Notes: generated by a model from the letters alone, not told the origin. A stretch of DNA of 64,000 bases from a bacterium (GCA_031385045.1 JANNBC010000024.1:160001-224000), one strand, 5' to 3'; shown: positions 917 through 21,609, numbered from the stretch's first letter. Numbers and translations: made by a program.

Positions 917-1456
917 ATGGTGTCTTACGAAGATATAGAAGTAATTTTTTCAAGGATTACAGAAAAGTTTGATGATTCGATTCCAATTGGTGGACGTTGT
1001 GAAAGCAGTGTCTACTATCATACCTCGGACTTAACTGAAGAAGATCTAGATCGTTGTGCTGAATATGCAGTTGATCGTATTCGTAAGGTTTTAAATACAC
1101 AAAACGCGGACGTCTTTCTAAAGCTACCCTCGGAGCATAGTTTCTTTGCCGAAAGACTATTTCAAATTTACCGCGAATATTTACCCAATCCTGATTCTTT
1201 AATTTTTGATACTTACAGTCCAACTGCAATTACTAATGGAATGGGGGAGAAGTATCGGGGTCAAAATACAATTTTGATTAATGATGTAATTACAACTGCA
1301 AGATCAACTTTAGAGGCTCATAGCAAGGCAACGCTTCGTGGAATTCCAGTACTTTGTTGGGCAACATTAATTGATCGAACTTTTGGGCCAGGTCCTGTGC
1401 CAGTTGTTTCTGCTTTTACCGGTGCACCAGTTCGAGTTTTGACTAATATTTCTTAA
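917..1456 (+). CDS. phosphoribosyltransferase-fold protein (PyrE-like, degenerate PRPP loop)
   Basis: ILINDVITTARST resembles the type I PRTase loop (VxxDDVITTG); LIDR and N-terminal GGRCESSVYY echo orotate PRTase; AAGGA RBS upstream. Confidence 0.65.
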   Translation: MVSYEDIEVIFSRITEKFDDSIPIGGRCESSVYYHTSDLTEEDLDRCAEYAVDRIRKVLNTQNADVFLKLPSEHSFFAERLFQIYREYLPNPDSLIFDTYSPTAITNGMGEKYRGQNTILINDVITTARSTLEAHSKATLRGIPVLCWATLIDRTFGPGPVPVVSAFTGAPVRVLTNIS

Positions 1457-1460
1457 GTCA

Positions 1461-3377
1461 ATGTCTGGTAGTCAAATTATTTCCAAGGGTTCATTATTAA
1501 GTGAGGAGATAGTTTTCTGTGAGAATATCCTAAGTAAATCCGCTGTTTCCGGGGCTTTTCTTGGAGCTCTAAAGAGTTTTTATGGTGCAATTAGTCCTGT
1601 TGTTCTGCAGGGTAAACAATTAAAGGTCTTAAAGTTAACTAGAGCGATACCTGCTCAAGAAAAAATATTATTAACTCAATTAGAAAGTCGTTACCAAGAG
1701 CTTAGTAAATTCTATCCCAATCAGATTAACCAGTTTGGAAGTATTGGGGAATATTTTTATTGCCTACGATCTTTTGAGCGCAGCACACTCCCCGAATATT
1801 TAGAAGAGAATCATATTCGAGTAGCAGAGGCAAATTATTTTGTAACTAAAATCTTAAATTTAATTTTAGACTTAAAACGAATTAATTTCCCACACGGACA
1901 TATCAGTTTAAATAATTTAATTATTGATGAGAAGAATCTTAGCTTAGTTGATTTTGGTTTTGCATTTAGTAGTAGTAAGAGTCCGGGGGCTATGTTAGCT
2001 GAAGGTAACTACTTAGCTCCGGAAAGTAATCGGAGCTTAACATCTGATTTCGCCAGCGATATTTATTCTTTTGGGAAGATAATCAAATATCTTTATCGTG
2101 GGTTACAATGTCCGATCCCCTTGGATCTTCCAGATTTAATGTGTGATCCAGATCCTAAAAAGCGTCCTAATTTAATTGAAGTTAATAATAAGATTACTGA
2201 TACTTTTACTCAAAAGAGAAATCAGACAGAGCATTGGAGTAAGTCGGCAATTTTTACTAATGAATTAGATCCAAGCAAGCTCTATAAAGGATATCTTAGT
2301 CCAGCTATTCTGGAACAAATTCGTCAAGAATTTGCTAAGAGTATGATTCAAGTTCCGGTTAGTGCCGTCCCAGCTGTAGCTGTCTCTGCTAACGAACAAA
2401 GCGTACCTGCTATTTCTGTAGCTAAAGAATTTAAAAAGAATGATCTGAATTTTATGCTTACGGCAATTGCCGTTGTCAGTTTATTGTTAGTGGTTTATTT
2501 CTGGAGAAATAGTAATTCACCTGAGGTGCCTGAAACCCTGCCAAGTAATCAACAAACAATTAATAATTTACCAGTTGTAAATGGATTTGTTCCCGAGCCC
2601 GTTAAATTAACAGTACAATTCCTGCAACAAAATAAAATCACTCAAGCTCAAGATTATCTACAGATTCTTAGTGATATTTATAATGCTAATTATCAAAGTG
2701 GAAAGCTGACAGCTTTCATAAATCCCCTAGAGAACGAGCAGATTCAGTTAATTAAAGTCCAAAGCTTAGTTTTACTAGTTGCTAGTAACCCTAATTTATT
2801 AGATTTAATTTACCAAGACTTAACTAAGAGTAAGATTTTAGTTCGCTATTTAAATTGGTTTAAATCTAATTCAATTTTAGATTGGTCAACCGTTGATAAT
2901 CCAATTAAGTTAATGGTACTTTCTGGAAATATTCCTGATAGTATTCTTAATTTAGAATTTTACTTTGACTTAGCAAAGCATTTTGATCCAGAAATTAGAG
3001 AATCAAATCGCTTACCGCTTAATGCAAAAATTAGTAGTTCTGATCAGAAAGAATTTTATCTAGCAATGCTAGGTCAACTAGATCAGTTTGATCGCGATAA
3101 TTTAAACTTTTTAAATTTAGCTCTAACTAAAGATAAAGATTTGCAATTAGCCTTAATTTCGGAGTGGTTTGATAATACTAAGCCTAAGAATGAATTGGTT
3201 TTTAATTTAGTTTTGGCTAGGAAGAAGCCAGTAGAGGGAGAGGACTATTTTAGTTTTTATGCTGCGCGTTATTTAAAAGATTATCTAAGTACCTTGCCGC
3301 TTAGTGAATTAACTAAGCTAAAAAATCATCATGAAAAACAACTAAAGATTTTTTATGACATAAAAAAAGGAGGCTAA
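1461..3377 (+). CDS. membrane-anchored Ser/Thr kinase-like protein (probable pseudokinase)
   Basis: HGHISLNN catalytic-loop region, DFG, YLAPE, SDIYSFG; TM helix FMLTAIAVVSLLLVVYFW; large C-terminal domain. Confidence 0.8.
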   Translation: MSGSQIISKGSLLSEEIVFCENILSKSAVSGAFLGALKSFYGAISPVVLQGKQLKVLKLTRAIPAQEKILLTQLESRYQELSKFYPNQINQFGSIGEYFYCLRSFERSTLPEYLEENHIRVAEANYFVTKILNLILDLKRINFPHGHISLNNLIIDEKNLSLVDFGFAFSSSKSPGAMLAEGNYLAPESNRSLTSDFASDIYSFGKIIKYLYRGLQCPIPLDLPDLMCDPDPKKRPNLIEVNNKITDTFTQKRNQTEHWSKSAIFTNELDPSKLYKGYLSPAILEQIRQEFAKSMIQVPVSAVPAVAVSANEQSVPAISVAKEFKKNDLNFMLTAIAVVSLLLVVYFWRNSNSPEVPETLPSNQQTINNLPVVNGFVPEPVKLTVQFLQQNKITQAQDYLQILSDIYNANYQSGKLTAFINPLENEQIQLIKVQSLVLLVASNPNLLDLIYQDLTKSKILVRYLNWFKSNSILDWSTVDNPIKLMVLSGNIPDSILNLEFYFDLAKHFDPEIRESNRLPLNAKISSSDQKEFYLAMLGQLDQFDRDNLNFLNLALTKDKDLQLALISEWFDNTKPKNELVFNLVLARKKPVEGEDYFSFYAARYLKDYLSTLPLSELTKLKNHHEKQLKIFYDIKKGG

Positions 3378-3391
3378 TGCCTCCTTTTTTT
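3362..3391. terminator. bidirectional intrinsic terminator
   Basis: AAAAAAA-GGAGGC-TAAT-GCCTCC-TTTTTTT between the convergent kinase-like and pilin genes. Confidence 0.85.
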
Positions 3392-3409: not shown

Positions 3410-3865
3410 TTATGGGTTTCCATTACCACCAAGGTTAGAGTTGGTATTGTTACTTTGACAGCCTGATAATACGTTTGTACCAAAGAAGGTATTTACTAAC
3501 GATCTCAGGATGAACGCACCAATCGCTACTGCTAAGAGACCCAAAGCAGCTTTGTACTGTCCGAAGGCAGCACTAACAATTGCTCCAATTCCCGCAATAA
3601 TCATAATCAAGGCACCAAATGCTCCCTCGATGAAGTCCAAGATAGCACAAATAATCGCAATAAATTGTCCTTGCTCGATGGTGAACTTGCTTGCTCCCTG
3701 ATTAGTCGCCAACGCTAAGTCAGCAACGCCTAAGTTAATCAACATTACACCTAAAAACAAATAAAATACCCTTTCGGCATTTTCACTTGGATTTTTTACT
3801 AATGTTCCTAGCCTTTGACTAGAAGTGAGATAAGTTTTGTTAAGTTTACTAATAATATTTTTCAT
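3410..3865 (-). CDS. T4SS pilin (TraA/TrbC/VirB2-like)
   Basis: 53-aa leader ending ALA, then two Gly/Ala-rich hydrophobic helices (GAFGALIMIIAGIGAIVSAAFG; AALGLLAVAIGAFIL); next to traX in the T4SS cluster. Confidence 0.7.
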   Translation of the reverse strand: MKNIISKLNKTYLTSSQRLGTLVKNPSENAERVFYLFLGVMLINLGVADLALATNQGASKFTIEQGQFIAIICAILDFIEGAFGALIMIIAGIGAIVSAAFGQYKAALGLLAVAIGAFILRSLVNTFFGTNVLSGCQSNNTNSNLGGNGNP

Positions 3866-3960
3866 TTAAATTTACTATGATAAAGTTTCGTTAAAGATTC
3901 ATAGTGTTTTCTTTAACCCTTAACTCTTAGTCTAGACTTAAAGCCCTGATCACTCAATCA

Positions 3961-4671
3961 TTAGAATGGATGTTCTAGTAGATATCTGATGAAAATTAAT
4001 AAAATTAAATGTACTGGGTAGTAAGAGTAAAAGAGATATTTCCAGCGACGCATAAATTCGAATTGATTGGGGATTCTGGAAGCAAGAAAGAAGATTAAAG
4101 GGAGGTAGCCAAGCAGGGCAACAAATGAGACAAGCGAGTTATTTAGGTAATAGGTTGTTAATAGAATATATAGAGCAAAATCAATCGTTCGGTGAATTAG
4201 GAAGGCGGTGATGGAAAGACCTAAAATAAGCCCGGCTAGTCCATATTCAAAGTAGATCGGGATTTCCAAATATCGTACTATGAGTAAAATACCCACAACT
4301 ACAACTATTACTGCATAATAATACCAGCTAGATTTTTGTATCAAGGCAGTGCTGGTTTTTAAGATCAGCCCTAAAATTCCCAAAGTAAAGAAAATATTTA
4401 ATAGAACTGACTGATCAAAAGCCAAGTAAAAAGGTAGTTGGGAGAGGATGCTAAAAATAAAAATACGGATTAGGTATTTTTTTGGATTTTGACTGTGAAA
4501 GAGGAAATTATAGGAAATTAAGAAAACAAAGAGGGGCATCGCAATCCGCCCAAGCTGAGTTCCAAAATTATCATAGGAGTGAAAAAGAATTTTTGTGGAA
4601 TGATCCAACGTCATACTAGCAAGAGCAACAAGCTTTAAAAAATTTAAATTTAATTTGCTTTCACTTGGCAT
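3961..4671 (-). CDS. traX: TraX-family pilin acetyltransferase
   Basis: LKLVALASMTLDH, GRIAMPLF, ILSQLPF, LNIFFTL, FYSYYPVHL are TraX-family motifs; polytopic membrane protein. Confidence 0.85.
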   Translation of the reverse strand: MPSESKLNLNFLKLVALASMTLDHSTKILFHSYDNFGTQLGRIAMPLFVFLISYNFLFHSQNPKKYLIRIFIFSILSQLPFYLAFDQSVLLNIFFTLGILGLILKTSTALIQKSSWYYYAVIVVVVGILLIVRYLEIPIYFEYGLAGLILGLSITAFLIHRTIDFALYILLTTYYLNNSLVSFVALLGYLPLIFFLASRIPNQFEFMRRWKYLFYSYYPVHLILLIFIRYLLEHPF

Positions 4672-4678
4672 GATTGAT

Positions 4679-5224
4679 TTAACCCTCCGCCTCCACCAAA
4701 AGTCCTGGAAAGATTTTTAGAGGGTCTAGTGCTTTTCCATTGCTTCTAATTTCAAAGTGTAAATGGGGACCAGTTGCCAGGCCAGTACTGCCGACTAAGG
4801 CAATGATTGCTCCTGCTTTTACATGAGTCCCAGGGGTAACTAGATTTTTACTATTATGACCATAATGACTAGAGGTACCGTCGGGATGAAGAATGACAAC
4901 AAGGTTACCATATCCAGAATAAGGATCGGCAAAGACTACTAGTCCACTAGCAATTGCTCGAATTGGAGAGGCTTGGGGCGCTGCCAGATCTAGTCCATCA
5001 TGGTGACGGATTGCTTTAGTTATCGGATGTTTTCTAGTGCCAAAGTTACTACTAAGCCTGGCATCCATTAAGGGGTAGATATAGGAAGTTTGTCCAGCAC
5101 TGTCTAAGGGCGGACTCTGCGATTCCACAGGAGACGTAATTATTTGTGTAAGGCTGATCAGTAAGAGAAGCTTAAGAATTACCTTTAATAAGTTTAAGGG
5201 CTCTTGCCTCGACTTCATGATCAT
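4679..5224 (-). CDS. M23 family peptidoglycan metallopeptidase
   Basis: HDGLD (HxxxD), YGNLVVILH, YGH, GSTGLATGPHLHFE (HxH); N-terminal hydrophobic segment. Confidence 0.92.
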   Translation of the reverse strand: MIMKSRQEPLNLLKVILKLLLLISLTQIITSPVESQSPPLDSAGQTSYIYPLMDARLSSNFGTRKHPITKAIRHHDGLDLAAPQASPIRAIASGLVVFADPYSGYGNLVVILHPDGTSSHYGHNSKNLVTPGTHVKAGAIIALVGSTGLATGPHLHFEIRSNGKALDPLKIFPGLLVEAEG

Positions 5225-6353
5225 ATCCTTGTACCTTTACAGTTGTGGTCTCTTCGTTAAAACCATTTGGCACGGATTCTGTTACATCTGCTGAGATCCA
5301 AGCGCGCACACCGTTTGGCGCAATAACTCTAAGCCAAGCGTCTTGCTTCTGTTCTACAACAAGTCGTGAACCTCCAGCAAGCTCCATTAATGGCGAATGA
5401 TTCATTCCTGGGCCAGTGCGAAGATTCGCTTTATCAACAGCTACTTTGACAACAGGCATATCGGTATTTTCTTCGACAGGAGCAGATTGAACTATTTTTT
5501 TAGCTTCTGCCGGAGCAGTTTTTTTATCTTCACGGTTAACTGGTTTTAAACCTAAAACTTTGCGATTCTGATCATCTAGGATAGCAGCTAGTCTTTCCAC
5601 TTCAGTTTCTGCAAACATTAATTTTAGATTTAGTTTATCTATTTGTCCTTCAAATTTCTGTGTTAAGTCCGACTCAATAGTTTTGTATCCTTGATTTGCT
5701 ACCGTTAATTGGGAGATTTGATCAGCTTGAGATTTTGCTTGCTCGCTAAGTGTTTTAATTTGCTCTTCGGATTGATTGCTTAAGGAGATTTTCATTGATT
5801 CCAATTCCTTGGCAAAATCCGCCCGAATTTTGGCAATCTCTTGATCTTTATTTAGCAGTTCTTGATTTTTCTTAGCGATTGTTTGTTCTAAGTTAGTAAT
5901 ATCAGTTTTAACTTTATCAGCAATCGAATTATTCTCTGCTGTTTTAGTTGTAGCAATTGTTTCTGACTTCACTTCGGCAACAGCTGTCTTAGTAGTAGGT
6001 TTAATAGTCGGTTTAACAATAGCAACTTCTTCTTTCTTGTTCTCAACTGGCTTTAAGGTTTGTTGTGTCTCAATTTTAGCAGTTGGGGGAGTCGTGTTTA
6101 CAACTGCTAATTGTTTTTTCTCGATGACAACTGTTTTTTGACTAGCTGTCACTTCGGAATCTTTAATTTTTCCAGATAGAGAGCTTTCCAGAGCTTTTAG
6201 TCTAGCCTCAGCCTGATCTAACTCTTTAACATTTAAATTAAAATCGTAGGAAGCTTTGACAGTATTATTTCCATTAACAGCTGGAGTATCAGCGACAACA
6301 GTCATTGCTATTGCTAGTGAAGGAATTAAAGCCCATGATAATTTTTTCAACAC
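5172..6353 (-). CDS. exported coiled-coil protein with C-terminal bacterial SH3 (SH3b) domain
   Basis: signal peptide, long heptad-rich region, ANLRTGPG...WLRV...RAWIS SH3b signature; GTG start at 6353 behind GGAGG (ORF track start 6374). Confidence 0.8.
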   Translation of the reverse strand: MLKKLSWALIPSLAIAMTVVADTPAVNGNNTVKASYDFNLNVKELDQAEARLKALESSLSGKIKDSEVTASQKTVVIEKKQLAVVNTTPPTAKIETQQTLKPVENKKEEVAIVKPTIKPTTKTAVAEVKSETIATTKTAENNSIADKVKTDITNLEQTIAKKNQELLNKDQEIAKIRADFAKELESMKISLSNQSEEQIKTLSEQAKSQADQISQLTVANQGYKTIESDLTQKFEGQIDKLNLKLMFAETEVERLAAILDDQNRKVLGLKPVNREDKKTAPAEAKKIVQSAPVEENTDMPVVKVAVDKANLRTGPGMNHSPLMELAGGSRLVVEQKQDAWLRVIAPNGVRAWISADVTESVPNGFNEETTTVKVQGYDHEVEARALKLIKGNS

Positions 6354-6383
6354 AAAACCTCCAAATAAAGTCAAGACGACGTA

Positions 6384-6890
6384 TTAATCGGGTTGACTAC
6401 TTCTAAGACGGGCATCTCTTTCACGCTCCAACATGTCTTTAATTTCATATGGAGCATCGATTCCATATAATAAGACCTCGTTATCTGCCGAAGCTGCTGT
6501 GCCAATCTCGATTGATCCTACATCTAACATTCTTTCAATGATTGTTTGATTGATATCAATCCCCCTTATATCTTCATATCGGACACGATTGACTGATTGC
6601 TTCATAGAAAGTCGTCCCGAACAAGATTCAATTCCACGATTGTCTACTCGGTAGATGACATTATAAATCTTAAAGATGCATGAAAATAAATAAGAAATTG
6701 GAATAAGCCATAAAACAGGGAATGCAAGGTAAACCTGATAGCCAGCAAAGCTAAATAAGTAGCCATGGAGGGTTAAAAAGGTAAATTTATTAGATAAAAC
6801 TATGCAACCTACTGATAATATTAGGAATACTGCTATGCGCGTAACCTCTGAGCGCCAAACTTTATGTATAATGACCTCTGATTTAATCAT
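6384..6890 (-). CDS. membrane protein with bacterial PH domain (bPH_2)
   Basis: two N-terminal TM helices followed by YRVDNRGI...VRYEDIRGIDINQTIIERMLDVGSIEIGTAA. Confidence 0.8.
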   Translation of the reverse strand: MIKSEVIIHKVWRSEVTRIAVFLILSVGCIVLSNKFTFLTLHGYLFSFAGYQVYLAFPVLWLIPISYLFSCIFKIYNVIYRVDNRGIESCSGRLSMKQSVNRVRYEDIRGIDINQTIIERMLDVGSIEIGTAASADNEVLLYGIDAPYEIKDMLERERDARLRSSQPD

Positions 6891-6895
6891 CTTTA

Positions 6896-7150
6896 TTAAC
6901 GAAACATTGCTTCCAGGTCTTTTAAGGAGGAAGTGCCTTTGGAGCCATTTTTAGTCCCAGTCTCCTCTTGGGTGGGCTGAGTGTCTTCCATTTTTGGTAT
7001 GAAATTAGGTTTTTTACCTTCTTTTACTAATTCTAGCTTTCCACCAGAAAGTCTAAGAATAGTAAAGGCAATTACCATTAAAATGATGGTAGTTAAGTGG
7101 AGCTTATTGGTAAAAGGGCTAATAATATTTTTTGTGCTAATTAAGGCCAT
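6896..7150 (-). CDS. small single-pass membrane protein
   Basis: 84-aa ORF with one hydrophobic helix; tightly packed in the operon. Confidence 0.6.
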   Translation of the reverse strand: MALISTKNIISPFTNKLHLTTIILMVIAFTILRLSGGKLELVKEGKKPNFIPKMEDTQPTQEETGTKNGSKGTSSLKDLEAMFR

Positions 7151-7281
7151 AAATTAAATTTAATTATAAGGGGTTTTGATACTTATTTAGTCTTTCAAAG
7201 CCACCTTATCTAGAATAGCCTGACTTTTATTAAAATTCAATTAACTCTTCCTATTGGGTTAAATTTAACCATATAGATGGT

Positions 7282-7611
7282 TTATTTGTCCTGTTTTACA
7301 TCTTGAGGTGCTTCATATTTCCAGCGTCCCTGACGAATTTCCACAACTTCTTCATGGGCCGGACGGTAATAGGTTCCTTCTGGGTCTAATCCTGGTGGGA
7401 CTTTGACCACATCAATGATTGGAGGTTCCCAGACATATTCTACCGCACCCGGATCTTTGATCGTAATTGTTTCTACTTTTTCTTTCTCTACAAACACAGC
7501 TTCTGTGGTGTGCTTGCTAGAGCAGGAAATAATCCCTGTCAGTAAAACGAGTAAACTTAAAAATGTTAATTTTTTCATAAGCTCAAAGTTATTAAATATC
7601 TTAGGATTCAT
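7282..7611 (-). CDS. lipoprotein, TraV-like (second copy)
   Basis: lipobox IISC; YVWEPPIIDVVKVPPGLDPEGTYYRPAHEEVVEIRQGRW parallels the TraV C-terminal motif; overlaps the traC stop. Confidence 0.6.
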   Translation of the reverse strand: MNPKIFNNFELMKKLTFLSLLVLLTGIISCSSKHTTEAVFVEKEKVETITIKDPGAVEYVWEPPIIDVVKVPPGLDPEGTYYRPAHEEVVEIRQGRWKYEAPQDVKQDK

Positions 7612-10342
7612 CTTCTAGTCTTTGCCAAGTGCTAGTTCGATCCAGAACTTTTTCTTCTGGAACTTGAGCGGGCTCTGCTTCTTGAGTTTCAGCTTTAAAT
7701 TTTCCTCTGACTGATTTGGCGCCAAGCGGTGCCATCTTGATTGCTTGAAGGAAAGCTTGAACGTGATCGCCATTACAGCGTTTCACTAAGTCCGCATAGA
7801 ATTGATTATCATCCCCGTTGTTTGTGCTGGCCCAATAAAAGGATGCTTCTAGTGGAAGCACTAAGGCAGATTCCCCAATATCTGAAAGCAGATAAAATTG
7901 TGACTCCACGCCCATTACTGTTTTTAGTTGAGTAATCACGCTGGATTGTTGTTCCGATAAGTTGAATGCTTTCGCAGTTAGGTGGAATTTACTTGGATCT
8001 TGTTTTAAGAATATTTTATGAGCGGAGTTCTGAACAATTGCTTGTCCACCTTCTCCCACATAGAAATCTTCCGCTGACTGAGATGCTGCAATAACCATAC
8101 CCTTTCTTTTTCGGTATAATCTAAAAGCAGTTTCAATTGTTTTAGCAGAAGTCTTACCAATTAGATCGTGAGCCTCATCAAAGACTAGTAGTTTTCGGGT
8201 ATCTAATTCATTTGGATCGTTCATTACTTCATCGGCCCAAAGCATTGCTACTTTTAAGAAAACCCTTTGTAGATCAGGGTTACGACTGAGAGATTTTAAA
8301 TCAAATACAATTAGTCTTTCTGTCAGCTCTAGCGCCCCAGCACGATCAAAGAAATTTGAGTAAATACCATCGCCATAATAGTCACTGATTAGGATGGAAA
8401 CTCTTTGTCGTCGTAATGCTTCTTCTTCGTTTTCATCAACTTTTTTTGGTGCGCGTAAAACAGAAATTACATCACTTAAAATAAATTCTCGGCGACGAGC
8501 CCCGTTATAATAAATACGATGAGCTTCAATCAGGGAGTCACGGACAGCACTACGATCCATTCGATCTGGTTGAGTTGTGGCATCTGTCGCCATATCTAAA
8601 ATGACATCAACCGCCATATCAATTAAATCTTTATAATCCTCATTGGAGTTATCTCCTGGTGTTTTACCAAGCCGGGATAAGAAATTCATGGCTGGTGCTT
8701 TAGCGGGAGTTGCTTCGTATATTTTTCCACCAAAGATATGAGCTAATCTTTCAAATCCGCACGGTTGCCCAGTCATACCCTTATCAAAGATAAAGGCGAT
8801 TGGTGCTTTATCTACAATCTCGCCATCAAGTTTTTGAGAATAATGACCGCGCATTAATGTAATAATTAAGAAGCAAAGAAGGTATGATTTACCAGCTCCA
8901 GAGACCCCACTGATTAGCACGTTTGGCGCCATGTTAGAGTCATATAGATCGAAGCCAACTAGTTCTCGGTTCCAAAGACTTGGTAAAATAAAAAGCGGAT
9001 TTTTACTGCCGTGCCAGTTGCCCCAAATTGGAAATAATCTAACTGCGCGAGAGGATCTCATCATTGTTGTCCAGCCCTCACCATCTGTTGTTGGATCGTA
9101 ACAACCAGGTAGGGTGTTCATTAATACTCCCATATCCGAAATTAAATGAGTCATACCACGGGCACCATTTAGTTGTGGGAAAGCTGCCACTGCCTCAGAC
9201 CCAGCACGAATAACCTCATCGGCCGTTTCACAGAAAAATGTTTGGTGAACACCGACTCGGACAATTTGTGAAGTATTGCTGTAGAGTTCTTGGCGTGCAG
9301 CTCGAATGCTACCAATCTGAGTTTGAACTTTTTGGTTAGATCTTCCACCCATTGTCCGTAAGCGCAGACCCATAAATCCATCAATAGTGTCTAATCTTTT
9401 GATCTGTTCTTGAATCGAATCTTTGGAGAAGGTAACTGATAGCAAGTTTTCATATGGTGTTGATTGCAGAGGTGTAATCATTAATGGCAAACAGCGCTTC
9501 GGGGGCTTAACCATCGAAACAGTTCTAAAATAGCGACCATCTTTTTTTATAATTCCATCTTCCGGATGTTCAGCTGGAGTTTCGGAAATTTGATTGGCAA
9601 GTAAGTCAAAGGGATCGTATAAGGGCACTGGCACTGCTGTGTTTCTGCCATGACGAGACTTAGAACCTTTAGTGCTACGGCGGTTTAAGATTGGGTAAAG
9701 TAAGTCAATTAAATCTTGGGCATGAAGCATGCGCGGTGTCATGCCATTGTCTCTTAGCTTGACAACACTACCTTCAATTACTCCACGAAATTTAGAAGCA
9801 TAACCTTGATATTCCTTACGACGCATGGTTGCACTTACACCAACTTTACCTTTTAGTAATAGCTCAATAGTTCTTTGAATTTGTTGTCTCATTCCAATCG
9901 CTCTCCAAGGGGGATCGAAGCGAAAAGCGACAATTAATCTCTGATGTCGGGGTCGACGATGCAAGGCATGGTTTCTGGCCGCAGTGCGAATTGATTTAAC
10001 CCAACGACGAGCCATCCATCCGGCAACTCCAGAAGTTGGAAATGTTGTTAAGGAGGAGCGTAATAAATTTTCAACGTCAAAAGTAGTTGTCCAGATCATT
10101 TGCATGCTGATACTTGGTTCGAAAGAATCAACCATCTCTTGAATGCTATCTGAAATATGAAAGGCCTCTTGATCTGATACTGTTACCAAGATCTTGGGCA
10201 TTACTTCCCACATCGACCATAGTGAGGCATCGGAATTAATAAACAAGCCGTTATCCTCGTCATACTTAGAATAGGCTAGTAGCGAGTTAAAGAGCTCTTC
10301 GTCTTGGTACAGTCGCTTTCTGGTAATTCGGTTAATACTCAT
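7601..10342 (-). CDS. traC: TraC/VirB4 T4SS ATPase
   Basis: 913 aa; Walker A GVSGAGKS, Walker B LLVFDEAH, RKRKG..ASQS, IVQNS, F-type N-terminal region. Confidence 0.9.
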   Translation of the reverse strand: MSINRITRKRLYQDEELFNSLLAYSKYDEDNGLFINSDASLWSMWEVMPKILVTVSDQEAFHISDSIQEMVDSFEPSISMQMIWTTTFDVENLLRSSLTTFPTSGVAGWMARRWVKSIRTAARNHALHRRPRHQRLIVAFRFDPPWRAIGMRQQIQRTIELLLKGKVGVSATMRRKEYQGYASKFRGVIEGSVVKLRDNGMTPRMLHAQDLIDLLYPILNRRSTKGSKSRHGRNTAVPVPLYDPFDLLANQISETPAEHPEDGIIKKDGRYFRTVSMVKPPKRCLPLMITPLQSTPYENLLSVTFSKDSIQEQIKRLDTIDGFMGLRLRTMGGRSNQKVQTQIGSIRAARQELYSNTSQIVRVGVHQTFFCETADEVIRAGSEAVAAFPQLNGARGMTHLISDMGVLMNTLPGCYDPTTDGEGWTTMMRSSRAVRLFPIWGNWHGSKNPLFILPSLWNRELVGFDLYDSNMAPNVLISGVSGAGKSYLLCFLIITLMRGHYSQKLDGEIVDKAPIAFIFDKGMTGQPCGFERLAHIFGGKIYEATPAKAPAMNFLSRLGKTPGDNSNEDYKDLIDMAVDVILDMATDATTQPDRMDRSAVRDSLIEAHRIYYNGARRREFILSDVISVLRAPKKVDENEEEALRRQRVSILISDYYGDGIYSNFFDRAGALELTERLIVFDLKSLSRNPDLQRVFLKVAMLWADEVMNDPNELDTRKLLVFDEAHDLIGKTSAKTIETAFRLYRKRKGMVIAASQSAEDFYVGEGGQAIVQNSAHKIFLKQDPSKFHLTAKAFNLSEQQSSVITQLKTVMGVESQFYLLSDIGESALVLPLEASFYWASTNNGDDNQFYADLVKRCNGDHVQAFLQAIKMAPLGAKSVRGKFKAETQEAEPAQVPEEKVLDRTSTWQRLEDES

Positions 10343-10345
10343 ATT

Positions 10346-10813
10346 TTACTTGGCAAATTGTGGTACTATTCGCTCTGCTGCTAATAACCGAACGTCTTTA
10401 TTAATAGTATCGATCATTACCTTAACATTATTTTCTTGTTCGATTAAGACCCTAAGTTCCTCAGCTGTTAATACTTTATTTACTGAATATTTTCGTTCCT
10501 CTAGGCTTGGAGCGCAATAAAAATGATATTTCAAGGAAGTTGCTAAGGCCTGACCAACTTCACAGAGACTTGTATCTGGCAAATCATAAAAGAATTTTTT
10601 GATAATAATTTTCCGACTAGGATTACTGGCAAACTCTGTATAACCGGGGGAAGAAGATCTAACTGAACGAACGGGATAAAATACTGGAGGACGCTTTGTC
10701 TGTGTCTCTGCTATTGAATATGGTCTCTCAGGTAATGGTTCAACAGTCTTAGCTGAAGTGCAAGCAAATATCCCTAGAGAAAAAATTAAAAAAACCAGTA
10801 ATTTTTTAAACAT
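10346..10813 (-). CDS. lipoprotein in the T4SS cluster (possible DotD/secretin N0-like fold)
   Basis: lipobox IFAC; C-terminal helix/strand pattern SLCEVGQALATSLKYHF...VKVMIDTINKDVRL; fold assignment is tentative. Confidence 0.5.
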   Translation of the reverse strand: MFKKLLVFLIFSLGIFACTSAKTVEPLPERPYSIAETQTKRPPVFYPVRSVRSSSPGYTEFASNPSRKIIIKKFFYDLPDTSLCEVGQALATSLKYHFYCAPSLEERKYSVNKVLTAEELRVLIEQENNVKVMIDTINKDVRLLAAERIVPQFAK

Positions 10814-11241
10814 TACTTTCTAATATAAGGCAAATTAGATGTATTAGTATCACCACGATTTAATTGAGATTCAAGTTCAAAAGCATCTTGCAGATTCCAA
10901 CGATCGTCTAGAATTTTTATGTAATAATAATGCGCAGGAATTAAATCGCCATAAGAGTTTAAGTGATCCGGTACCCACATCAAGCGGACGACAGCGGGCT
11001 TCATTACAGGATTTACTGGTTCTGGTGGCATAGCAGCATTGTAACTTCCTACTTGCTCTAAGACCTCACGAGCCTCTTTTCCTTTGTTGCTCTCAGGATT
11101 CAGTGCGTTGTCGTTAGCGGAGCCTTTGAGTGCTATGTCAGATGGTGGTTCGTAAAAGGGATTGACTACTTTACCAATTGTGCCACAGGAGCAAAGCAAG
11201 CAGACAAAACTAAATAGTATAATTTTCAATTTCATAATCAT
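10813..11241 (-). CDS. traV: TraV-like outer-membrane lipoprotein
   Basis: lipobox CSC; VVRLMWVPDHLNSYGDLIPAHYYYIKILDDRW matches the TraV motif; lies between traB and traC as in F-type systems. Confidence 0.8.
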   Translation of the reverse strand: MIMKLKIILFSFVCLLCSCGTIGKVVNPFYEPPSDIALKGSANDNALNPESNKGKEAREVLEQVGSYNAAMPPEPVNPVMKPAVVRLMWVPDHLNSYGDLIPAHYYYIKILDDRWNLQDAFELESQLNRGDTNTSNLPYIRK

Positions 11242-11345
11242 TTAACCGTTAACTTTCACCAAGTTAATTTTGTAACTTGGCCTAGTCTAAAACCTCAAAT
11301 CTAAGAAGATTTATATTATCTAAGAGAGGTTTGAATTTAAAATCA

Positions 11346-12488
11346 CTAATCTAATGATGCAAATGTTAGATTAGGGTCTTCCATTGATTCAAACAAGCCA
11401 TCAAGTTCAACATTCTGCGAAAAAACTGCTGTCGCACTACGACCTGAAAGTACTTTTACATGAGGCACCAGCATCTTAGAGCGTTCTTTAATATATCCAC
11501 TCCAGTTACTACCTGCCTGTTGCACACCCCTGCCAACTCCATATTCTAAAGCATCACCAGTAACTGCTTGGCTAAATCCACCCATTCCATTAGAATTAGT
11601 CGAGACTTGAGCACTGGAAATACCTTGACCCATTCCAGCTACAGTTCCAGCAATTAATTCTCCTGCTAGAACCTTACCAATTGGATCGATTAAAATACCT
11701 TCCATTCCTCGAATGCCATCTTCGCCTACGATCCAACCATCAACATCAACTACTTTACGAGATCCATCTGGATAGCGCATGCTCATTTTATTAAGTCTAA
11801 ATAGTGCTCTTTGATCAATTAAAGATCCAGTAGCTGCAGCTAAAAGTCTTGCTTCCCCTAATGGCAGTGTCACGCCATCTGGGCCGGTAACATCACTGTC
11901 TAATTGAAAAACAACAGGGAAGGGATCTCCTTCAATTGGAGCATTAACCCCAGCTAAAAGTTTTAAGCGTACAGAGTCACCAGCTGCAATAAAAGCAACC
12001 TTCTTGTCTACAGGCTTTACCGGTGGTGCTACAAGGGCAGCACTATCTTCTTCCCAAATTGATTCTAGTGTGTTGGCATCAAGATTCTCAGGAGTAACTG
12101 CTGCCGCGTTGTAGCCTTTGACAGCATCCGATGATTCTTCCAAGCCACGAACACGCTCAATAACTTTTGCTAAAATTTTAGCAGTTTGCTCTTCAGTTTC
12201 GGTTGTTCTTTCCAAGATCTTTTGTTTGTCGGTTTCTAATTCTTGAATTCGACGTTCTAATTCAGCTTTTTGAGTTAAGTTAAATTCTAATAATTCATTA
12301 CTTGCTTTGTCTGCAGTAGTTGCACCAGTTGTAGAATTGATATCAGCTACAGGTTTATTGCTATATCTTCGAGGTTTATTATCTGCAAACATTCCAATTA
12401 AAATAACCAATACTAATCCAGCAAGAAGTATTTGCCATTTGCGGTCATGTTTAACTAAATTTACAATATCATTAAGCTTCTGCTTCAT
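11346..12488 (-). CDS. traB: TraB/VirB10 core-complex protein
   Basis: TM + coiled coil + LLAGVNAP, GSLIDQRALFRL, DGWIVGEDGIRGMEG; ATG at 12488 behind GGAGG (ORF track start 12500). Confidence 0.9.
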   Translation of the reverse strand: MKQKLNDIVNLVKHDRKWQILLAGLVLVILIGMFADNKPRRYSNKPVADINSTTGATTADKASNELLEFNLTQKAELERRIQELETDKQKILERTTETEEQTAKILAKVIERVRGLEESSDAVKGYNAAAVTPENLDANTLESIWEEDSAALVAPPVKPVDKKVAFIAAGDSVRLKLLAGVNAPIEGDPFPVVFQLDSDVTGPDGVTLPLGEARLLAAATGSLIDQRALFRLNKMSMRYPDGSRKVVDVDGWIVGEDGIRGMEGILIDPIGKVLAGELIAGTVAGMGQGISSAQVSTNSNGMGGFSQAVTGDALEYGVGRGVQQAGSNWSGYIKERSKMLVPHVKVLSGRSATAVFSQNVELDGLFESMEDPNLTFASLD

Positions 12489-12630
12489 TATAACCTCCAA
12501 AACCCATTTTTTGCCTCATTTAAACTTAATTTTGGCAAATTAATTAGGAAATTCGCTCATTCCTAAAACCTATCGGTAATTTCTCTCAAATTGCTTCTAA
12601 CGATTCCAGTCAGAAACTTTCTTTGTCTGT

Positions 12631-12657
12631 TTATCGACTAAAAATTGATTTTATTTA
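12631..12657 (-). promoter_or_regulatory. sigma28 (FliA/SigD)-like promoter upstream of traB
   Basis: minus strand reads TAAA-N15-GTCGATAA (consensus TAAA-N15/16-GCCGATAA) in the traK-traB gap. Confidence 0.55.
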
Positions 12658-12721
12658 GTCTAAAAAACAAATCACCGTTATTTAAAATCTGATACTAACG
12701 TAATATTTTCAATAACTTAAG

Positions 12722-13504
12722 CTATTGAGCTTTTGTAATAACATAAATCTTGGCTCGATGAGAGGCTGCAAGCTGTTGCTCGCTAGTCATCGGTGAAGGG
12801 GATAGTTCCCACCTTTCAGCCATAATCGCTTTTGTACCATCCACTCGGAATGTGGCAGGGTTAATTTGTTGGTTACTAGTTAATAAGTTTTCTACATTTA
12901 AGACATAACCCCAAAAATCTGCACCCATATAAATGCGATCGATGGTTGCCATCATTGTTCCGTCATTTAATATTACTTCACCGGCATGTTGATCACTAAT
13001 TCGGTATCCAGCAATTTTCTTTTTGCCAAATTCAACTGCTAAAACTAATTCTTTCATTAGACCACTAACCGAATTGTTTTGAGCTTCTGGAAATTGTTTG
13101 CGGTAGTATTCTGGCATTTCCTCTTCTTTAGGGATAATAGCAGCCATGCCTGCATTGTCATTAATTGAAATAATATCATCACGCGGATTACTTGGATCGG
13201 CGGGCTTAATTCGTAGTGAATATGATTGCTCGTTTTCTAAGGTTACAATCAGGGCTTCTCCATTTGTACTTAATTCTTCTGTTCCAAAAACAATCAGGCG
13301 TTGCTCTTTTTTATCTACGGTAAGTGGCGCTCCTGTTCTTTTGAATCCTGATTTAATTTCACTGGAAAAGTTAATCTGAGTTGGCTCTCCTGGTGTAACA
13401 TAGATAGTGACTTCAGTATTTTGATACTCAATTTCTCTAGCTACTGCTGTGCTAACAAAGATTAATAGAGATAGTAACGATAGAGTTGTATATTTGATGC
13501 TCAT
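12722..13504 (-). CDS. traK: TraK (F-type, VirB9-like) protein
   Basis: signal peptide; VTPGEPTQINF; C-terminal YMGADFWGYVLNVEN...ELSP...KIYVI; position between traE and traB. Confidence 0.8.
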   Translation of the reverse strand: MSIKYTTLSLLSLLIFVSTAVAREIEYQNTEVTIYVTPGEPTQINFSSEIKSGFKRTGAPLTVDKKEQRLIVFGTEELSTNGEALIVTLENEQSYSLRIKPADPSNPRDDIISINDNAGMAAIIPKEEEMPEYYRKQFPEAQNNSVSGLMKELVLAVEFGKKKIAGYRISDQHAGEVILNDGTMMATIDRIYMGADFWGYVLNVENLLTSNQQINPATFRVDGTKAIMAERWELSPSPMTSEQQLAASHRAKIYVITKAQ

Positions 13505-13506
13505 AA

Positions 13507-14175
13507 TTACTTAATTTTTGATAATTCTAAATTGGTAACAACAATACCGTAGGGATTAAATTTATTCCTTGGCACTGTCGTTAAGTAGACGGTATGCTTG
13601 ATCTCTTGACCTTCATACTCACGTCCTGCGATAAATCTTACCTGTTCTCCAATAAATGTGACACTGACATTGTTTTGATCAATAGCCTGAAAAATAGTTT
13701 TCTCATTATTTGGAAAATATAATTGAGTCCTTTGGGTTTGAACAATCAAATTGAGTTCTGTATTCAACATGTCGGTTTCAAATCTACTAAGCATTGGTTC
13801 AACTAAATAGTTGGATGCTTCGTTAAATTGTCGGGCAGCGATTTTATACTGATACGTTGAAATTAGATTAACGAAATCATTGGCAACACTAATAAACTCA
13901 GTCTGTGGAATCTCTCCAGCAGGATAGTAGCCTGGTAGTGGTTTTGCAGGCACATTTAGGTTAATTTCTTGGTTAGAGTAGAAAAAAATTGCCGCAATAA
14001 TTGCAATCGAAGTTACTAAGATTTGTAATAAAGCAAGACCACGCCAGAGTAAGGCTTGCTCGCGGTAGTTCTCCCAAACTCTAACTGTATCATTCTCCGT
14101 CCGTGCTTCGCGAAATGACGTATCATCAATAATCTGTTTGACTTGTTTCTGAATTTTTTGCGATGGCTTATTCAT
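13507..14175 (-). CDS. traE: TraE (VirB8-like) inner-membrane protein
   Basis: single TM followed by a domain ending NPYGIVVTNL; L-E-K-B synteny. Confidence 0.75.
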   Translation of the reverse strand: MNKPSQKIQKQVKQIIDDTSFREARTENDTVRVWENYREQALLWRGLALLQILVTSIAIIAAIFFYSNQEINLNVPAKPLPGYYPAGEIPQTEFISVANDFVNLISTYQYKIAARQFNEASNYLVEPMLSRFETDMLNTELNLIVQTQRTQLYFPNNEKTIFQAIDQNNVSVTFIGEQVRFIAGREYEGQEIKHTVYLTTVPRNKFNPYGIVVTNLELSKIK

Positions 14176-14569
14176 TAGAGTATTTCTCCTCGTAGATTAA
14201 ATCAAACATGGAATCTAAATCTAGATGGTGATAATCTTTTTTTTCATCAACCTTACGAATCGGCCCACCACTCCATAATGGTTGAATACTAGCAGGTTTA
14301 GGGATTCCAGGTGGGGGAAGCCCAAGTGCAATCATAAACTGATTTGCCACGCCTCTTGTGCCATCCGGAAATTGCTTTCTTAGAGCTGCCATTCCAAAAG
14401 TTATTCCGCATAAGGTGCAAATAAAGATTGGAGTCCCACCTACAGGGCTAATTTGAAAAGCACTACCAATTAACATGGTCATGATAAATCCAGCGATCCA
14501 TTCAGTGACGTTAGCCCCTACAAATGTCCAGCCTTCATTTAAGCCATTAATAACTTCCCCGTTATCCAT
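14168..14569 (-). CDS. traL: TraL-like (VirB3-like) membrane protein
   Basis: small two-TM protein overlapping the traE start; RKQFPDG after the TMs; canonical position. Confidence 0.55.
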   Translation of the reverse strand: MDNGEVINGLNEGWTFVGANVTEWIAGFIMTMLIGSAFQISPVGGTPIFICTLCGITFGMAALRKQFPDGTRGVANQFMIALGLPPPGIPKPASIQPLWSGGPIRKVDEKKDYHHLDLDSMFDLIYEEKYSNE

Positions 14570-14573
14570 GAAT

Positions 14574-14915
14574 TTACTTTAAATTATCAAAAATTTTAAT
14601 ATCAGGGTCGTTCATCACCCCTTCTTTGGAGATACGTGGTTGAGGACTAATAACAACAGTAAGATCGTCAGCAAGTTGGCCAAGTTTGATTCGCCATTGC
14701 TCTTGATCCAAAAGTGTTTCAGCACTGGCTGTACTGGAGCCTCGATCAAACTCTTTTAGTGCCATCATTAATAATTGACGAGCGCGGGAATAATGGCCAA
14801 CGGCTTTGGACAAGGTTGCTCCTTCAGCGACTTGAATACCTTCGGTTTCAGGTTCTGCAAAGACAGGAGGTGCAACTAGGAATAATGAGAGTAAAACCAG
14901 ATAAAACTTATTCAT
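14574..14915 (-). CDS. exported hypothetical protein at the head of the T4SS operon
   Basis: signal peptide ending VFA; 4 nt from the traL-like gene. Confidence 0.65.
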   Translation of the reverse strand: MNKFYLVLLSLFLVAPPVFAEPETEGIQVAEGATLSKAVGHYSRARQLLMMALKEFDRGSSTASAETLLDQEQWRIKLGQLADDLTVVISPQPRISKEGVMNDPDIKIFDNLK

Positions 14916-15202
14916 TTTGGGTCTAGAATATTATGTAAATTTCAAAAAATATTTGCCAATATCGTTAAATTTACTGCGGGCAGTAGCGTGGAATAAACCA
15001 ATGTACTGCCACTAAAACAAAATAAATAGGGTTAAAAAGAATGAATTTTGGCAATGACTTTCGAATAACCCTATATAGCTATCAGATAATAGCTTAGAAA
15101 TGATTCACTAAACAGATTAAATTATTCAAAAATTCACAAATCTAACTATTGATTTTAATAAGCTACTGATATAACTTGAGAACTTGCTTTGAGAGGTTTT
15201 AT

Positions 15203-15688
15203 ATGTATATCGGCGGAATCACATTTCATATCAATAAATCGTTTGCTAACTTGCAACTAGTTCCAGAGAATCGTGGCTTACGGATTGTTTACAAGCCAGT
15301 AATTAATAATGTTGAGGTGACTGAGCACCTAGGATTTATAGATCTATTTTTACCAATCGATGCTGTCGGCGGACTCTGGGCTACAACTAAAGCATTTCTA
15401 TATGCCGTTGAGTCACTTGATGAAAATATTATTTTACAGAGTAAAGAAGCGGGGGAGAACCCCAACGATATTTTAATTAAACTTTATCGTGATAAACCAC
15501 TTGGTGATCAAGGAAAACTTAATGGGCATGAAAGTTGCTGGTTAAGGATTGTTAACGGTCGGAGCGAAGAAGAGCGTCGTAGAATTAAATTAGGACCTCG
15601 TGATTTGCTTTGCTTAGAATTAGCTTGTCAGAGTGTTATGACAATTGCTGGCGCAACAGCCCAACATAATCCACAAAAAATTTCTTAA
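15203..15688 (+). CDS. hypothetical cytoplasmic protein divergent from the T4SS operon
   Basis: GAGAGG RBS at 15191-15196 before ATG 15203 (ORF track start 15176). Confidence 0.7.
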   Translation: MYIGGITFHINKSFANLQLVPENRGLRIVYKPVINNVEVTEHLGFIDLFLPIDAVGGLWATTKAFLYAVESLDENIILQSKEAGENPNDILIKLYRDKPLGDQGKLNGHESCWLRIVNGRSEEERRRIKLGPRDLLCLELACQSVMTIAGATAQHNPQKIS

Positions 15689-21400: not shown

Positions 21401-21609
21401 ATGCTGGTTTTGAAATATCCGATCGAATTCAAATTGCCGTTGATACCAAAACCTTAGAATTAACTGCAGCAATTACTTCTAATTTAGAATACATTAAATC
21501 AGAAGTTCTAGCGACTGAGATCCTAAGTACTTGGGATAGTTTTTCAGCTGAGGCGACGGAAGCACATCAAATCGAAGAGTATCCAATTAACATTGCAATA
21601 TCTAGATAA
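18487..21609 (+). CDS. ileS: isoleucine--tRNA ligase (type 2)
   Basis: DGPPFASGLPHYGH, GWDTHGLP, WTTTPWTL, DWNISRNRFWG, DQTRGWFY, KMSKS; 1040 aa. Confidence 0.97.
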   Translation: MQTVSPQLNLSEIDERVLKFWQVDQTFKKSLDLRKDADKFLFYDGPPFASGLPHYGHLLVGTMKDIIPRYQTMLGKSVDRRFGWDTHGLPIEMIIEKELGLKGRTDILEYGVDRYNEACRSGVLRYVDEWGKVTNRLGRWVDFQNDYKTMDPDFMESVWWVFKQLWEAGKIYEGTRCMPYSWRLATPLSNFEASSNYKMVQDPAITVAFKLKESPDTSFLAWTTTPWTLPANFALCLNPEITYLTIKSGQQKYILAEARLENFFKKDQVEILKSQLGSELFNIAYEPLLPYFASEQKAFYTLNDSYVTTQDGTGIVHIAPAHGEDDHRLGLANNLPVIDPTDAEGNFKLEVTHFAGQNIKEADKGIIQLLKDEGKLFKLETIDHSYPFCERSNTPLIYKTISAWYVKVEELRGEMLKNNAEIHWVPDHIKDGRFGKWLEQARDWNISRNRFWGNPLPIWKCDQENCDQMECLGSRSELETKTGQTVADIHKHFVDQLTWKCTNCSTGQMRRIPEVLDCWFESGAMPYAQQHYPFANKETFETNFPADFIIESLDQTRGWFYTLMVLSSSVFKKAPFKNCIVTGMVLAEDGKKMSKSLKNYPDPTHVLDQYGADALRLYLINSPLLKGESLRFSERGVKEIIRSVFLPFWNVYSFFTTYANVDNYQPSATLTESKNSLDTWILSRFQSLLNKVEAEMKVYQVYNVVPCLLEFLEDLTNWYLRRSRRRFWSDNLQDKQDGYDTLYYILVEFSKTLAPFLPFLTEEIYQNLRSLEVPGKISIHLQDYPQSQEKFVNSNLESQMELIKLTVSLGRSLRSNINIRTRQPLASITVVTKNQADAETLKSFSAHIKEELNVKEVLFSANEQDLVEIEVKPDFPTLGPIFGKEMKALAGFLKNLSGDDLAKLERGEEIEFMDKKIPATALDLRRKPKAKDLQIETARGVTVFYETKLTLELLEEGLAREFVNRVQKMRKDAGFEISDRIQIAVDTKTLELTAAITSNLEYIKSEVLATEILSTWDSFSAEATEAHQIEEYPINIAISR

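Follow-up and report, generated by a model that had tools for sequence, protein, structure and literature searches.

The 64-kb stretch of bacterial DNA analysed here (hereafter the window; G000:C54:160001-224000) is the mid-part of a 334-kb contig in G000, a metagenome-assembled genome (MAG) of 2.83 Mb in 61 contigs that is 94.9% complete. It contains a run of 15 co-oriented, intact open reading frames (ORFs) on the minus strand, extending from position 14915 down to 3410 with short gaps between them, which forms the main operon of a very divergent F-like type IV secretion system (T4SS) and pilus machine. Such a run had been proposed in a preliminary description of the window, and the ORF calls, the matches to Pfam and NCBIfam and the orthologs together confirm it. 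The cluster was compared across a set of 124 species genomes of one GTDB phylum, spanning 36 families and 64 genera, 73 of which are of high quality (at least 90% complete, with at most 5% contamination). Proteins with no direct family match were resolved by means of their orthologs from 49 related loci, and it is out of these 49, several of them truncated at a contig end, that the counts per gene are given below.

Present at all 49 loci is the gene of the TraC/VirB4 ATPase (7601..10342, 913 aa), which passes the cut-off of PF11130 (51.6 bits against 28.1) and has TIGR02746 as its best NCBIfam match, at 177.7 bits and below the equivalog cut-off of 567. Its Walker A motif, GVSGAGKSY, is invariant across 19 orthologs, and the mean column identity is 74%. 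Upstream of traC the F-type order TraL-TraE-TraK-TraB-TraV is held, with scores for TraK and TraV that lie near or below cut-off and with TraL as a lead. TraB, the envelope-spanning core protein of the VirB10 class (11346..12500, 46 loci), matches both PF03743 TrbI (E 1.8e-14) and the F-type TraB model NF010289 (E 2.8e-15), and TraK, the VirB9-class protein of the outer-membrane core (12722..13504, 44 loci), matches PF23536 TraK_C (E 1.9e-6) and TIGR02756 (E 3.5e-5). TraV, a lipoprotein of the VirB7 class (10813..11241, 47 loci), bears a lipobox-like LLCSC, a weak match to PF09676 (E 1.6e-3) and a mean column identity within its family of 51%.

The preliminary labels of the smaller proteins fared less evenly. 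TraE, a bitopic inner-membrane protein of the VirB8 class with one transmembrane segment (13507..14175, 222 aa, 42 loci), stands by way of its orthologs: the protein of the window does not itself match PF05309, and 15 of the 19 aligned family members do, the best at E 1.3e-9. The label traL, in contrast, is a lead. The 133-aa protein in question (14168..14569, 41 loci) lies directly upstream of traE and has two hydrophobic segments; its nearest clusters in the ESM Atlas are VirB3 (18 of 30, top score 0.96), with TraL at rank 16 and a recognition value of 2077, below the mark of 2300, and none of 18 orthologs matches a T4SS family of Pfam. A predicted complex of this protein with residues 1-420 of TraC scored 0.17 and 0.22 against a mark of 0.32, in a run made without controls. 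Alignment with hhalign gave no match of the TraL-candidate family to F-plasmid TraL, nor of the TraE family to F TraE; these negatives are uninformative, since PF05309 does match 15 of 19 TraE members and the single F sequences are too distant. No relevant chain was returned when the TraE, TraL-candidate and TraV family profiles were compared with PDB sequences. Ahead of all of these, the first gene of the operon (14574..14915) encodes o113, a small secreted helical protein of 113 aa with a signal peptide, which has the same place at 41 loci and belongs to no known family, 0 of 18 orthologs having a match in Pfam.

Two further lipoproteins accompany the core. Between traV and traC lies the gene of a 155-aa lipoprotein (10346..10813, 41 loci by blastp) with, from its predicted fold, a secretin-N0/DotD-like domain. 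The AlphaFold2 (AF2) model has a mean predicted local distance difference test (pLDDT) value of 85.8, rising to 96-98 over residues 74-145, and the Foldseek matches in the PDB include the N0 domain of PilQ (2.0e-3), chains of the Legionella Dot/Icm outer-membrane core (3.9e-3 to 8.7e-3) and DotD itself (3ady, 6e-2), together with the N0 domains of GspD and InvG. The language-model lead from the Atlas, a DotD/TraH lipoprotein in 19 of 30 matches, agrees with the fold. Directly after traC is a second TraV-type lipoprotein (7282..7611, 109 aa, lipobox IISC, 47 loci), a paralog of the C-terminal domain of TraV, for which the two families align in hhalign with a probability of 91.3% (E 9.4e-7, 37 columns); the name traV2 given to it earlier is thereby upheld.

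The operon continues with a family-less, single-pass membrane protein of 84 aa (6896..7150, 20 loci) and then with three genes which the preliminary description took to be peptidoglycan-directed partners, and which are indeed conserved in the operon. These are a bPH_2 membrane protein with hydrophobic N-terminal segments (6384..6890; PF03703 E 1e-8; 26 loci), a membrane-anchored or secreted coiled-coil protein of 400 aa with a terminal, peptidoglycan-binding SH3b domain (5172..6374; PF08239 SH3_3 E 2.4e-8 at residues 315-363; 41 loci), and a secreted, active-looking M23 (LytM-type) peptidoglycan endopeptidase with a signal-like N-terminus (4679..5224; PF01551 E 3.8e-34; 34 loci). The catalytic motifs HxxxD and HxH of the last were found, as regular expressions, in 34 of 34 orthologs.

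The last gene, at 3410..3865 and 29 loci, is that of a VirB2/TraA-type propilin of 151 aa, assigned from a weak match to PF04956 TrbC (E 5.8e-3) that is shared by 2 of 13 orthologs. In the 19 aligned members of the family a long leader and an A-x-A site are seen along with two hydrophobic helices that are strongly conserved; the AF2 model is a helical hairpin (pLDDT 75.9), for which Foldseek gave no significant match, T-pilus VirB2 (8fai_A) standing at rank 8 with E 3.3. Beside it lies a TraX/TrbP-type pilin acetylase (3961..4671; PF05857 E 3.9e-31, NF010454 TrbP 68 bits), which had been counted as a member of the cluster like any other. It occurs at 1 of the 49 loci and in 6 of the 124 genomes, and stands inside the T4SS cluster in this genus only (G000 and G041); in other words, TraX is a genus-specific insertion and no ancestral part of the cluster. 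Most of the 19 pilin orthologs have Gln directly after the predicted A-x-A cleavage; the pilin of the window has Thr at this place, and that of the same-genus genome (L041:16747-17199) has Ala. With the cleavage site as predicted, the pilin may here have gone from an N-terminal Gln to an acetylated N-terminus, alongside the in-cluster TraX.

A clean terminator had been reported at the end of the run. Read directly, it is a perfect hairpin, A7-GGAGGC-ATTA-GCCTCC-T7 (3391-3362), that acts as a bidirectional intrinsic terminator (3362..3391, both strands) between the pilin gene and a convergent kinase gene; an automated pattern scan did not list it. At the other end, TTGGCA-18-CATAAT (14959-14930) stands just upstream of the first gene as a promoter, a mere candidate since the number of sigma-70-like sites in the scan (31) is not above that in shuffled sequence (34.5 +/- 6.2).

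The distribution of the cluster is that of a host trait. TraC was found in 121 of the 124 genomes, in all 73 of high quality and in 63 of the 64 genera, essentially as a single copy, the extra matches being fragments at contig ends; the three genomes without a TraC match are 77-89% complete. Most of these MAGs carry the NCBI label Bdellovibrionota, and the titles of the 49 loci include Bdellovibrionales and Deltaproteobacteria as well. All 49 are collinear, in the order o113, VirB3-like, TraE, TraK, TraB, TraV, (N0 lipoprotein), TraC, TraV paralog, (small membrane protein), (bPH), SH3b, M23 and pilin, with those in brackets not at every locus, and at many of them the pilin gene is followed by a kinase gene and two small host genes. 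The conservation of synteny that had been suggested as a check is thus plain to see, and it extends beyond the operon itself.

Descent was followed with TraC. Its identity to the protein of the window falls with rank, from 93% in the same genus to 69% in the same family, 62-69% in the same order and 56-62% in other orders. A FastTree phylogeny of 70 TraCs of the lineage, picked from the 121 genomes for full length and spread of families, with nine outgroups (eight library proteins and F-plasmid TraC), places the lineage in one clade with support of 100 on a long branch. It takes 30 changes, the fewest possible, to account for the 31 family labels on this tree, against about 60 when the labels are shuffled; that is, TraC follows the taxonomy. 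Among 1.84 billion cluster representatives the TraC of the lineage is one full-length cluster (64% identity), and the next full-length protein is 30% identical. Ten clusters with a TraC match were looked up, the next-best full-length ones included: their named members are of the TraC family, and those named by organism are MAGs of Ratteibacteria, Planctomycetota and Nitrospirota. Plasmid records gave 4255 TraC matches, all below 60% identity and the best among the matches listed at 22-25%; where these listed matches have a named feature, it is annotated TraC in every case. The patchy spread, with TraC nested among plasmid or integrative-element sequences, that would have been expected of a mobile system is accordingly not seen.

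The composition of the genes agrees. The guanine-cytosine content is 34-41% across the window and 36-41% in the cluster, which is no outlier, and the codon-usage distances of the long genes TraK, TraB, TraC, SH3b and TraE lie at the 15th-61st percentile of 1455 long ORFs, typical of the genome. A comparison with the adjacent isoleucyl-tRNA synthetase (IleRS) was also made. The identity of IleRS is 44% in the same family, up to 63% in the same order and 47-53% in other orders, and it was rejected as a vertical yardstick, its identity not following rank. TraC is the more conserved of the two across the lineage. The failure of IleRS to track rank, together with its lower conservation, suggests that IleRS has been replaced by horizontal transfer in parts of the lineage.

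Chromosomal setting points the same way. The cluster is chromosomal, as the preliminary description had it, and lies mid-contig amid housekeeping genes. To its right are IleRS (18487-21609, adjoining the cluster), nucleotide-sugar and pseudaminic-type sugar genes, HisH/HisF-like genes, FliW, HemF, folate genes, SodA, a valyl-tRNA-synthetase-type gene and other housekeeping genes; to its left are a Ser/Thr kinase and two small proteins; and in the 20 kb upstream of the window are lipid A genes, an SLT transglycosylase and riboflavin genes. Integrase, tRNA, relaxase and type IV coupling protein (T4CP) genes were all absent from the window, as had been noted before for all but the tRNA, and from the 20 kb upstream of it, a reach of 49 kb on one side of the cluster and 23 kb on the other, so that no linked transfer block lies within that span. 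Of the features that mark a mobile element, namely a relaxase, an integrase with att sites, patchiness, foreign composition and a T4CP, only the T4CP was found. The cluster is, very probably, a vertically inherited host organelle and no mobile element.

Several neighbours deserve a brief record. The Ser/Thr-kinase-domain protein (638 aa) and the 179-aa protein beside it (917-3377, plus strand, the kinase gene being convergent with the pilin gene) keep their position at 16-18 of the 49 loci, and the smaller one has, by eye, a phosphoribosyltransferase-like motif. A 170-aa ORF divergent from the start of the operon (15176-15688, plus strand) has no Pfam match and a median identity of 66% at 14 loci; it could encode a regulator or be a conserved host gene without connection to the operon. 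Two adjacent PcfJ-like proteins, one of them with ankyrin repeats, are encoded 17-20 kb upstream of the window (G000:C54:140008-142971; L006:8-2971).

The operon is not the whole of the machine. The preliminary description had found a stripped-down cluster with no DNA-transfer genes, the pilus-assembly half of an F system, while allowing that missing genes could lie elsewhere in the genome. The former view does not hold and the latter does. The sole T4CP in a genome-wide Pfam search is a coupling ATPase of 792 aa on another contig (G000:C46:14785-17163), with matches to PF02534 (7.6e-38), PF10412 (7.5e-28) and PF12696 (3.8e-21). Its P-loop, KTGGGKTT, is intact by eye; a strict Walker A regular expression returned nothing. 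The gene is unlinked to the T4SS cluster and sits alone between polysaccharide genes and a DUF3108 gene, and its orthologs, at 57-93% identity, occur in 110 of the 124 genomes and 67 of the 73 of high quality. No partner gene is conserved beside it across 21 loci, where just a glycosyltransferase recurs (8 loci), and the 295-aa ORF downstream of it is kept in the same genus alone. Between 3 and 18 kb downstream are an island with an integrase and a D5-type primase (G000:C46:19949-24013; L005:2949-7013) and then type I restriction-modification and Mrr genes.

Behind a linker rich in glycine, the T4CP ends in a module of ~70 residues (~700-785), and stand-alone ORFs in other genomes of the lineage carry this module too. 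It was found in 6 of 6 ORFs fetched (L185-L190; 100-822 aa), one of which is ClpX-type AAA+-like by eye, and it is duplicated in the T4CPs of other orders; in this genome a tblastn search matched the module to itself alone. Cargo or adaptors may dock at this module.

A four-gene cassette on contig C5 supplies what appear to be further parts, namely a thioredoxin-fold, TraF-like protein, two secreted proteins and a TraG_N-like membrane protein of 1129 aa. The TraF-like protein (357 aa) matches Thioredoxin_8 at 3.8e-6 and TraF at just 0.17, and has no CxxC. The 1129-aa protein has no Pfam match of its own, PF07916 TraG_N having none anywhere in this genome, and 5 of its 21 orthologs match that profile at E 1e-4 to 7e-3 over positions 253-383, a consistent and sub-threshold signal. 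It is matched in 108 of the 124 genomes and 68 of the 73 of high quality, with several paralogs in other orders. Since the T4CP and the TraF/TraG-like cassette lie on other contigs, the machine is dispersed rather than halved; it is complete enough to work and is spread over at least three loci, the main operon, the C5 cassette and the C46 T4CP. A search of the whole genome for relaxase, T4CP and TraG, the check that had been recommended, thus returned the second, pointed to the third through orthologs and gave no relaxase in the four Pfam families used, MOBF (PF08751), MOBH (PF07514), MOBP (PF03432) and MOBQ (PF03389), MOBV, MOBC and MOBT not being searched. In the phylum set there are MOBH relaxases in 0 genomes, MOBF in 6, MOBP in 19 and MOBQ in 1, the union being 25, such that 99 of the 124 genomes are without all four families.

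The data establish the identities of the genes, their dispersal, their conservation and their vertical descent. From these parts a working scheme may be drawn, in which the roles in assembly, the task of the peptidoglycan genes, the substrate and the target are inferred. TraC, the VirB3-like protein, TraE and the TraG-like protein would form the inner-membrane platform, and TraK, TraB and TraV, with the TraV paralog and the DotD-like N0 lipoprotein added, the outer core. The propilin would be cut at its A-x-A site and then polymerised, in this genus probably also being N-acetylated by the acquired TraX. The Sec-exported M23 enzyme and the SH3b coiled-coil and bPH proteins would open up the peptidoglycan of the producing cell and hold on to it at the site where the machine goes in, taking the part of the lytic transglycosylase of plasmid systems (a VirB1-type role). 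The M23 motifs are kept in 34 of 34 orthologs and the N-terminus is of Sec type; remodelling of, and anchoring to, the cell's own sacculus is the simplest fit. The T4CP would load substrates from the cytoplasm into the channel, to be delivered on contact to another cell. The substrate is more likely to be protein than relaxase-piloted DNA, because a relaxase is absent here and in 99 of 124 genomes; in the terms of effector-translocating T4SSs, VirB4 and a T4CP are present, no relaxase was found and no effector was identified. Taken together, a divergent F-like T4SS/pilus machine that serves the phylum as an inherited organelle for T4CP-fed, contact-dependent export, probably of protein, is the reading that we favour, and we hold it to be on balance somewhat probable. 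Its more specific part, T4CP-fed export of protein to another cell, is close to evenly poised and falls a little to the doubtful side.

Several points weigh against this favoured reading. The function of the machine is inferred from its genes, and the target cell is a conjecture, as these data do not give the lifestyle of the lineage, predatory or otherwise. TraW (PF12477), TraU (PF06834), TraN (PF06986) and TraH (PF06122) have no match at E<=1 in this 94.9% complete genome. Assembly of the F-plasmid pilus requires all four, and therefore either the assembly pathway differs here or the proteins are too diverged to be seen. The absence of a relaxase is the absence of four Pfam families from MAGs, and an unrecognised nuclease could pilot DNA. 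The M23 and SH3b proteins might serve not in assembly but as weapons that are exported. The scores for TraV, TraK_C, the pilin, TraF and TraG_N are sub- or near-threshold and the VirB3/TraL-like protein is a lead, while the descent tree is a FastTree alone, of 70 of the 121 genomes. A search of sequencing runs for the locus gave DNA runs, from two studies only, and no RNA data set.

The alternative that survives best is a DNA machine, i.e. export or exchange of chromosomal DNA, akin to that of the gonococcal island or to chromosomal conjugation, through the T4CP and a nuclease outside the four relaxase profiles. F-type systems are ancestrally DNA transporters, the T4CP kept in 110 of 124 genomes has a domain of the TrwB DNA-binding type (PF10412), and its conserved extra C-terminal module could be read in the same sense. 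T4CPs, however, serve pure effector translocators too, no conserved partner gene accompanies this one at 21 loci, and MOBF, MOBH, MOBP and MOBQ are lacking both in this genome and in 99 of the 124, such that we consider DNA as the substrate to be unlikely.

Less probable again, and in our view quite improbable, is that the cluster makes a pilus only, an adhesive or retractile F-like structure for attachment, biofilm or surface sensing with no transfer of substrate. A conserved pilin gene does close the operon at 29 of 49 loci, several of them cut short, TraX was gained next to that gene in this genus, and a Pfam search of this genome gave no match for TraN, TraU or TraW, the proteins of mating-pair stabilisation. 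Against this stands a T4CP with an intact P-loop, retained in 110 of 124 genomes; as T4CPs are dispensable for pilus biogenesis in known systems, its retention argues for the transfer of a substrate.

A third possibility takes its cue from the sporadic relaxases of the phylum, in which case the resident machine would be a public mating pore that mainly serves small mobilisable elements bringing a relaxase and a coupling protein of their own. In six relatives among the 25 genomes with a relaxase, a MOBP or MOBF gene indeed has, at a distance of 1-3 kb, a second T4CP-like gene that is only remotely similar, at 25-30% identity (G113:C78, G035:C7, G013:C44, G045:C5, G092:C23 and G005:C41). These six pairs belong to separate mobile modules, which might exploit the resident machine. 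That they should be its main purpose is very unlikely: the 99 genomes without such a relaxase still keep TraC (56-93%) and the resident T4CP, this genome itself has no relaxase, and a benefit to parasites that occur only here and there would not keep TraC better conserved than IleRS. The notion of a decaying or quiescent integrated conjugative element in this genome, to which the missing relaxase and F-type genes and the sporadic relaxase-bearing elements of relatives (among them two MOBF copies in the same-genus genome G041) might be put down, can be given next to no weight when all 15 ORFs are intact, their order is kept in 49 loci, TraC occurs in 121 of 124 genomes with a tree that follows taxonomy, codon use is native and neither an integrase nor att-type flanks were found in the window or the 20 kb upstream.

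A bolder form of the favoured reading can be stated, namely a phylum-wide, near-essential F-type injection organelle of a lineage with a predatory or epibiotic lifestyle, in which relaxase-independent protein cargo passes through the resident T4CP, the outer-membrane core has been remodelled by the addition of a second TraV and of a DotD-like N0 lipoprotein, M23/SH3b replace the transglycosylase, and cargo or adaptors are perhaps marked by the ~70-residue T4CP module. Taken with all of its parts, we regard it as rather doubtful. Were it true, it would be the first F-type T4SS to serve as a phylum-wide organelle of cell-to-cell injection.

The interest of the cluster does not hang on this. Conjugation machines are usually seen as a property of mobile elements, and the known cases in which a host owns one are mostly effector systems of pathogens, of the P or I type. 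In the present case the F-like machine has very probably belonged to its host from the root of a phylum-rank lineage onward, and selection is strong enough for the TraC ATPase to outdo the neighbouring IleRS in conservation; the lineage offers a clean natural example of the exaptation of an F-type apparatus. It brings structural novelties in its two TraV paralogs, in a DotD-like lipoprotein within an F-type core and in M23/SH3b in the place of VirB1, and it is a candidate key organelle for the biology of an uncultured lineage of freshwater and sediment. In the full-text literature, exclusive of supplements, no description of an F-like T4SS in Bdellovibrionota was found.

Among known systems the nearest in parts are those of mating-pair formation type F (MPF_F), i.e. 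F, R27/IncHI and IncA/C-SXT/R391. The likeness lies in the order traL-like, traE, traK, traB, traV ... traC, in TraC, TraB, TraK and TraE scoring best to F-type models, and in the presence of a pilin gene and TraX. SXT/R391 and IncHI have a split layout, which the separate traF...traG cassette and coupling-protein locus recall. The present system differs in being chromosomal and vertically inherited across a phylum-rank lineage, with a TraC only 22-25% identical to those of plasmids; in having no relaxase found and TraW, TraU, TraN and TraH undetected in this genome; in its extra TraV paralog and DotD-like N0 lipoprotein; and in its M23/SH3b/bPH set, where plasmid systems have an SLT lytic transglycosylase, the SLT gene of the F plasmid adjoining its tra region. 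The 155-aa lipoprotein itself resembles DotD of the Legionella Dot/Icm (type IVB) system, a lipoprotein with an N0 domain, by fold and language-model features, whereas sequence identity to DotD is 15-19% and the rest of the cluster is F-like rather than I-type/IVB.

The T4SS of the gonococcal genetic island has dedicated peptidoglycan hydrolases and needs a relaxase and TraD for the secretion of single-stranded DNA. It is likewise a chromosomal F-like T4SS with a use other than plasmid transfer, to go by the part of the report available (PMC4207684). That island, as far as the same part describes it, is horizontally acquired and patchy, whereas the present system is near-universal in its lineage and no relaxase was found. 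As for attack on other cells, the hydrolases of the bacteria-killing X-T4SS are cytoplasmic effectors with a T4CP-recognition domain. This X-T4SS, of Xanthomonas and Lysobacter, and the T4SS proposed for predation by Vampirovibrio are, in the available parts of the reports (PMC4451040; PMC12428579), T4CP-dependent, contact-dependent, aimed at other cells and associated with peptidoglycan hydrolases, as the machine described here may be. They are P/T-type (VirB/D4-like), as is every T4SS for which those parts show or propose killing or predation (PMC4451040; PMC12428579), whereas here the machine is F-like, its M23 protein has a Sec-type signal and no effector was identified. The closest published concept is that of the chromosomal T4SS of Patescibacteria (Quinonero-Coronel et al. 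2025, PMC12102498), which, from the available part of that study, is phylogenetically distinct, lineage-wide and read as co-opted for the biology of the host. The two have in common that they are chromosomal, found throughout a lineage and mostly without a relaxase; they differ in that the Patescibacteria system, on the same partial view of the source (PMC12102498), is monoderm and of MPF_FATA origin, whereas that described here is a diderm F-type system, built with an outer-membrane core and belonging to another phylum.

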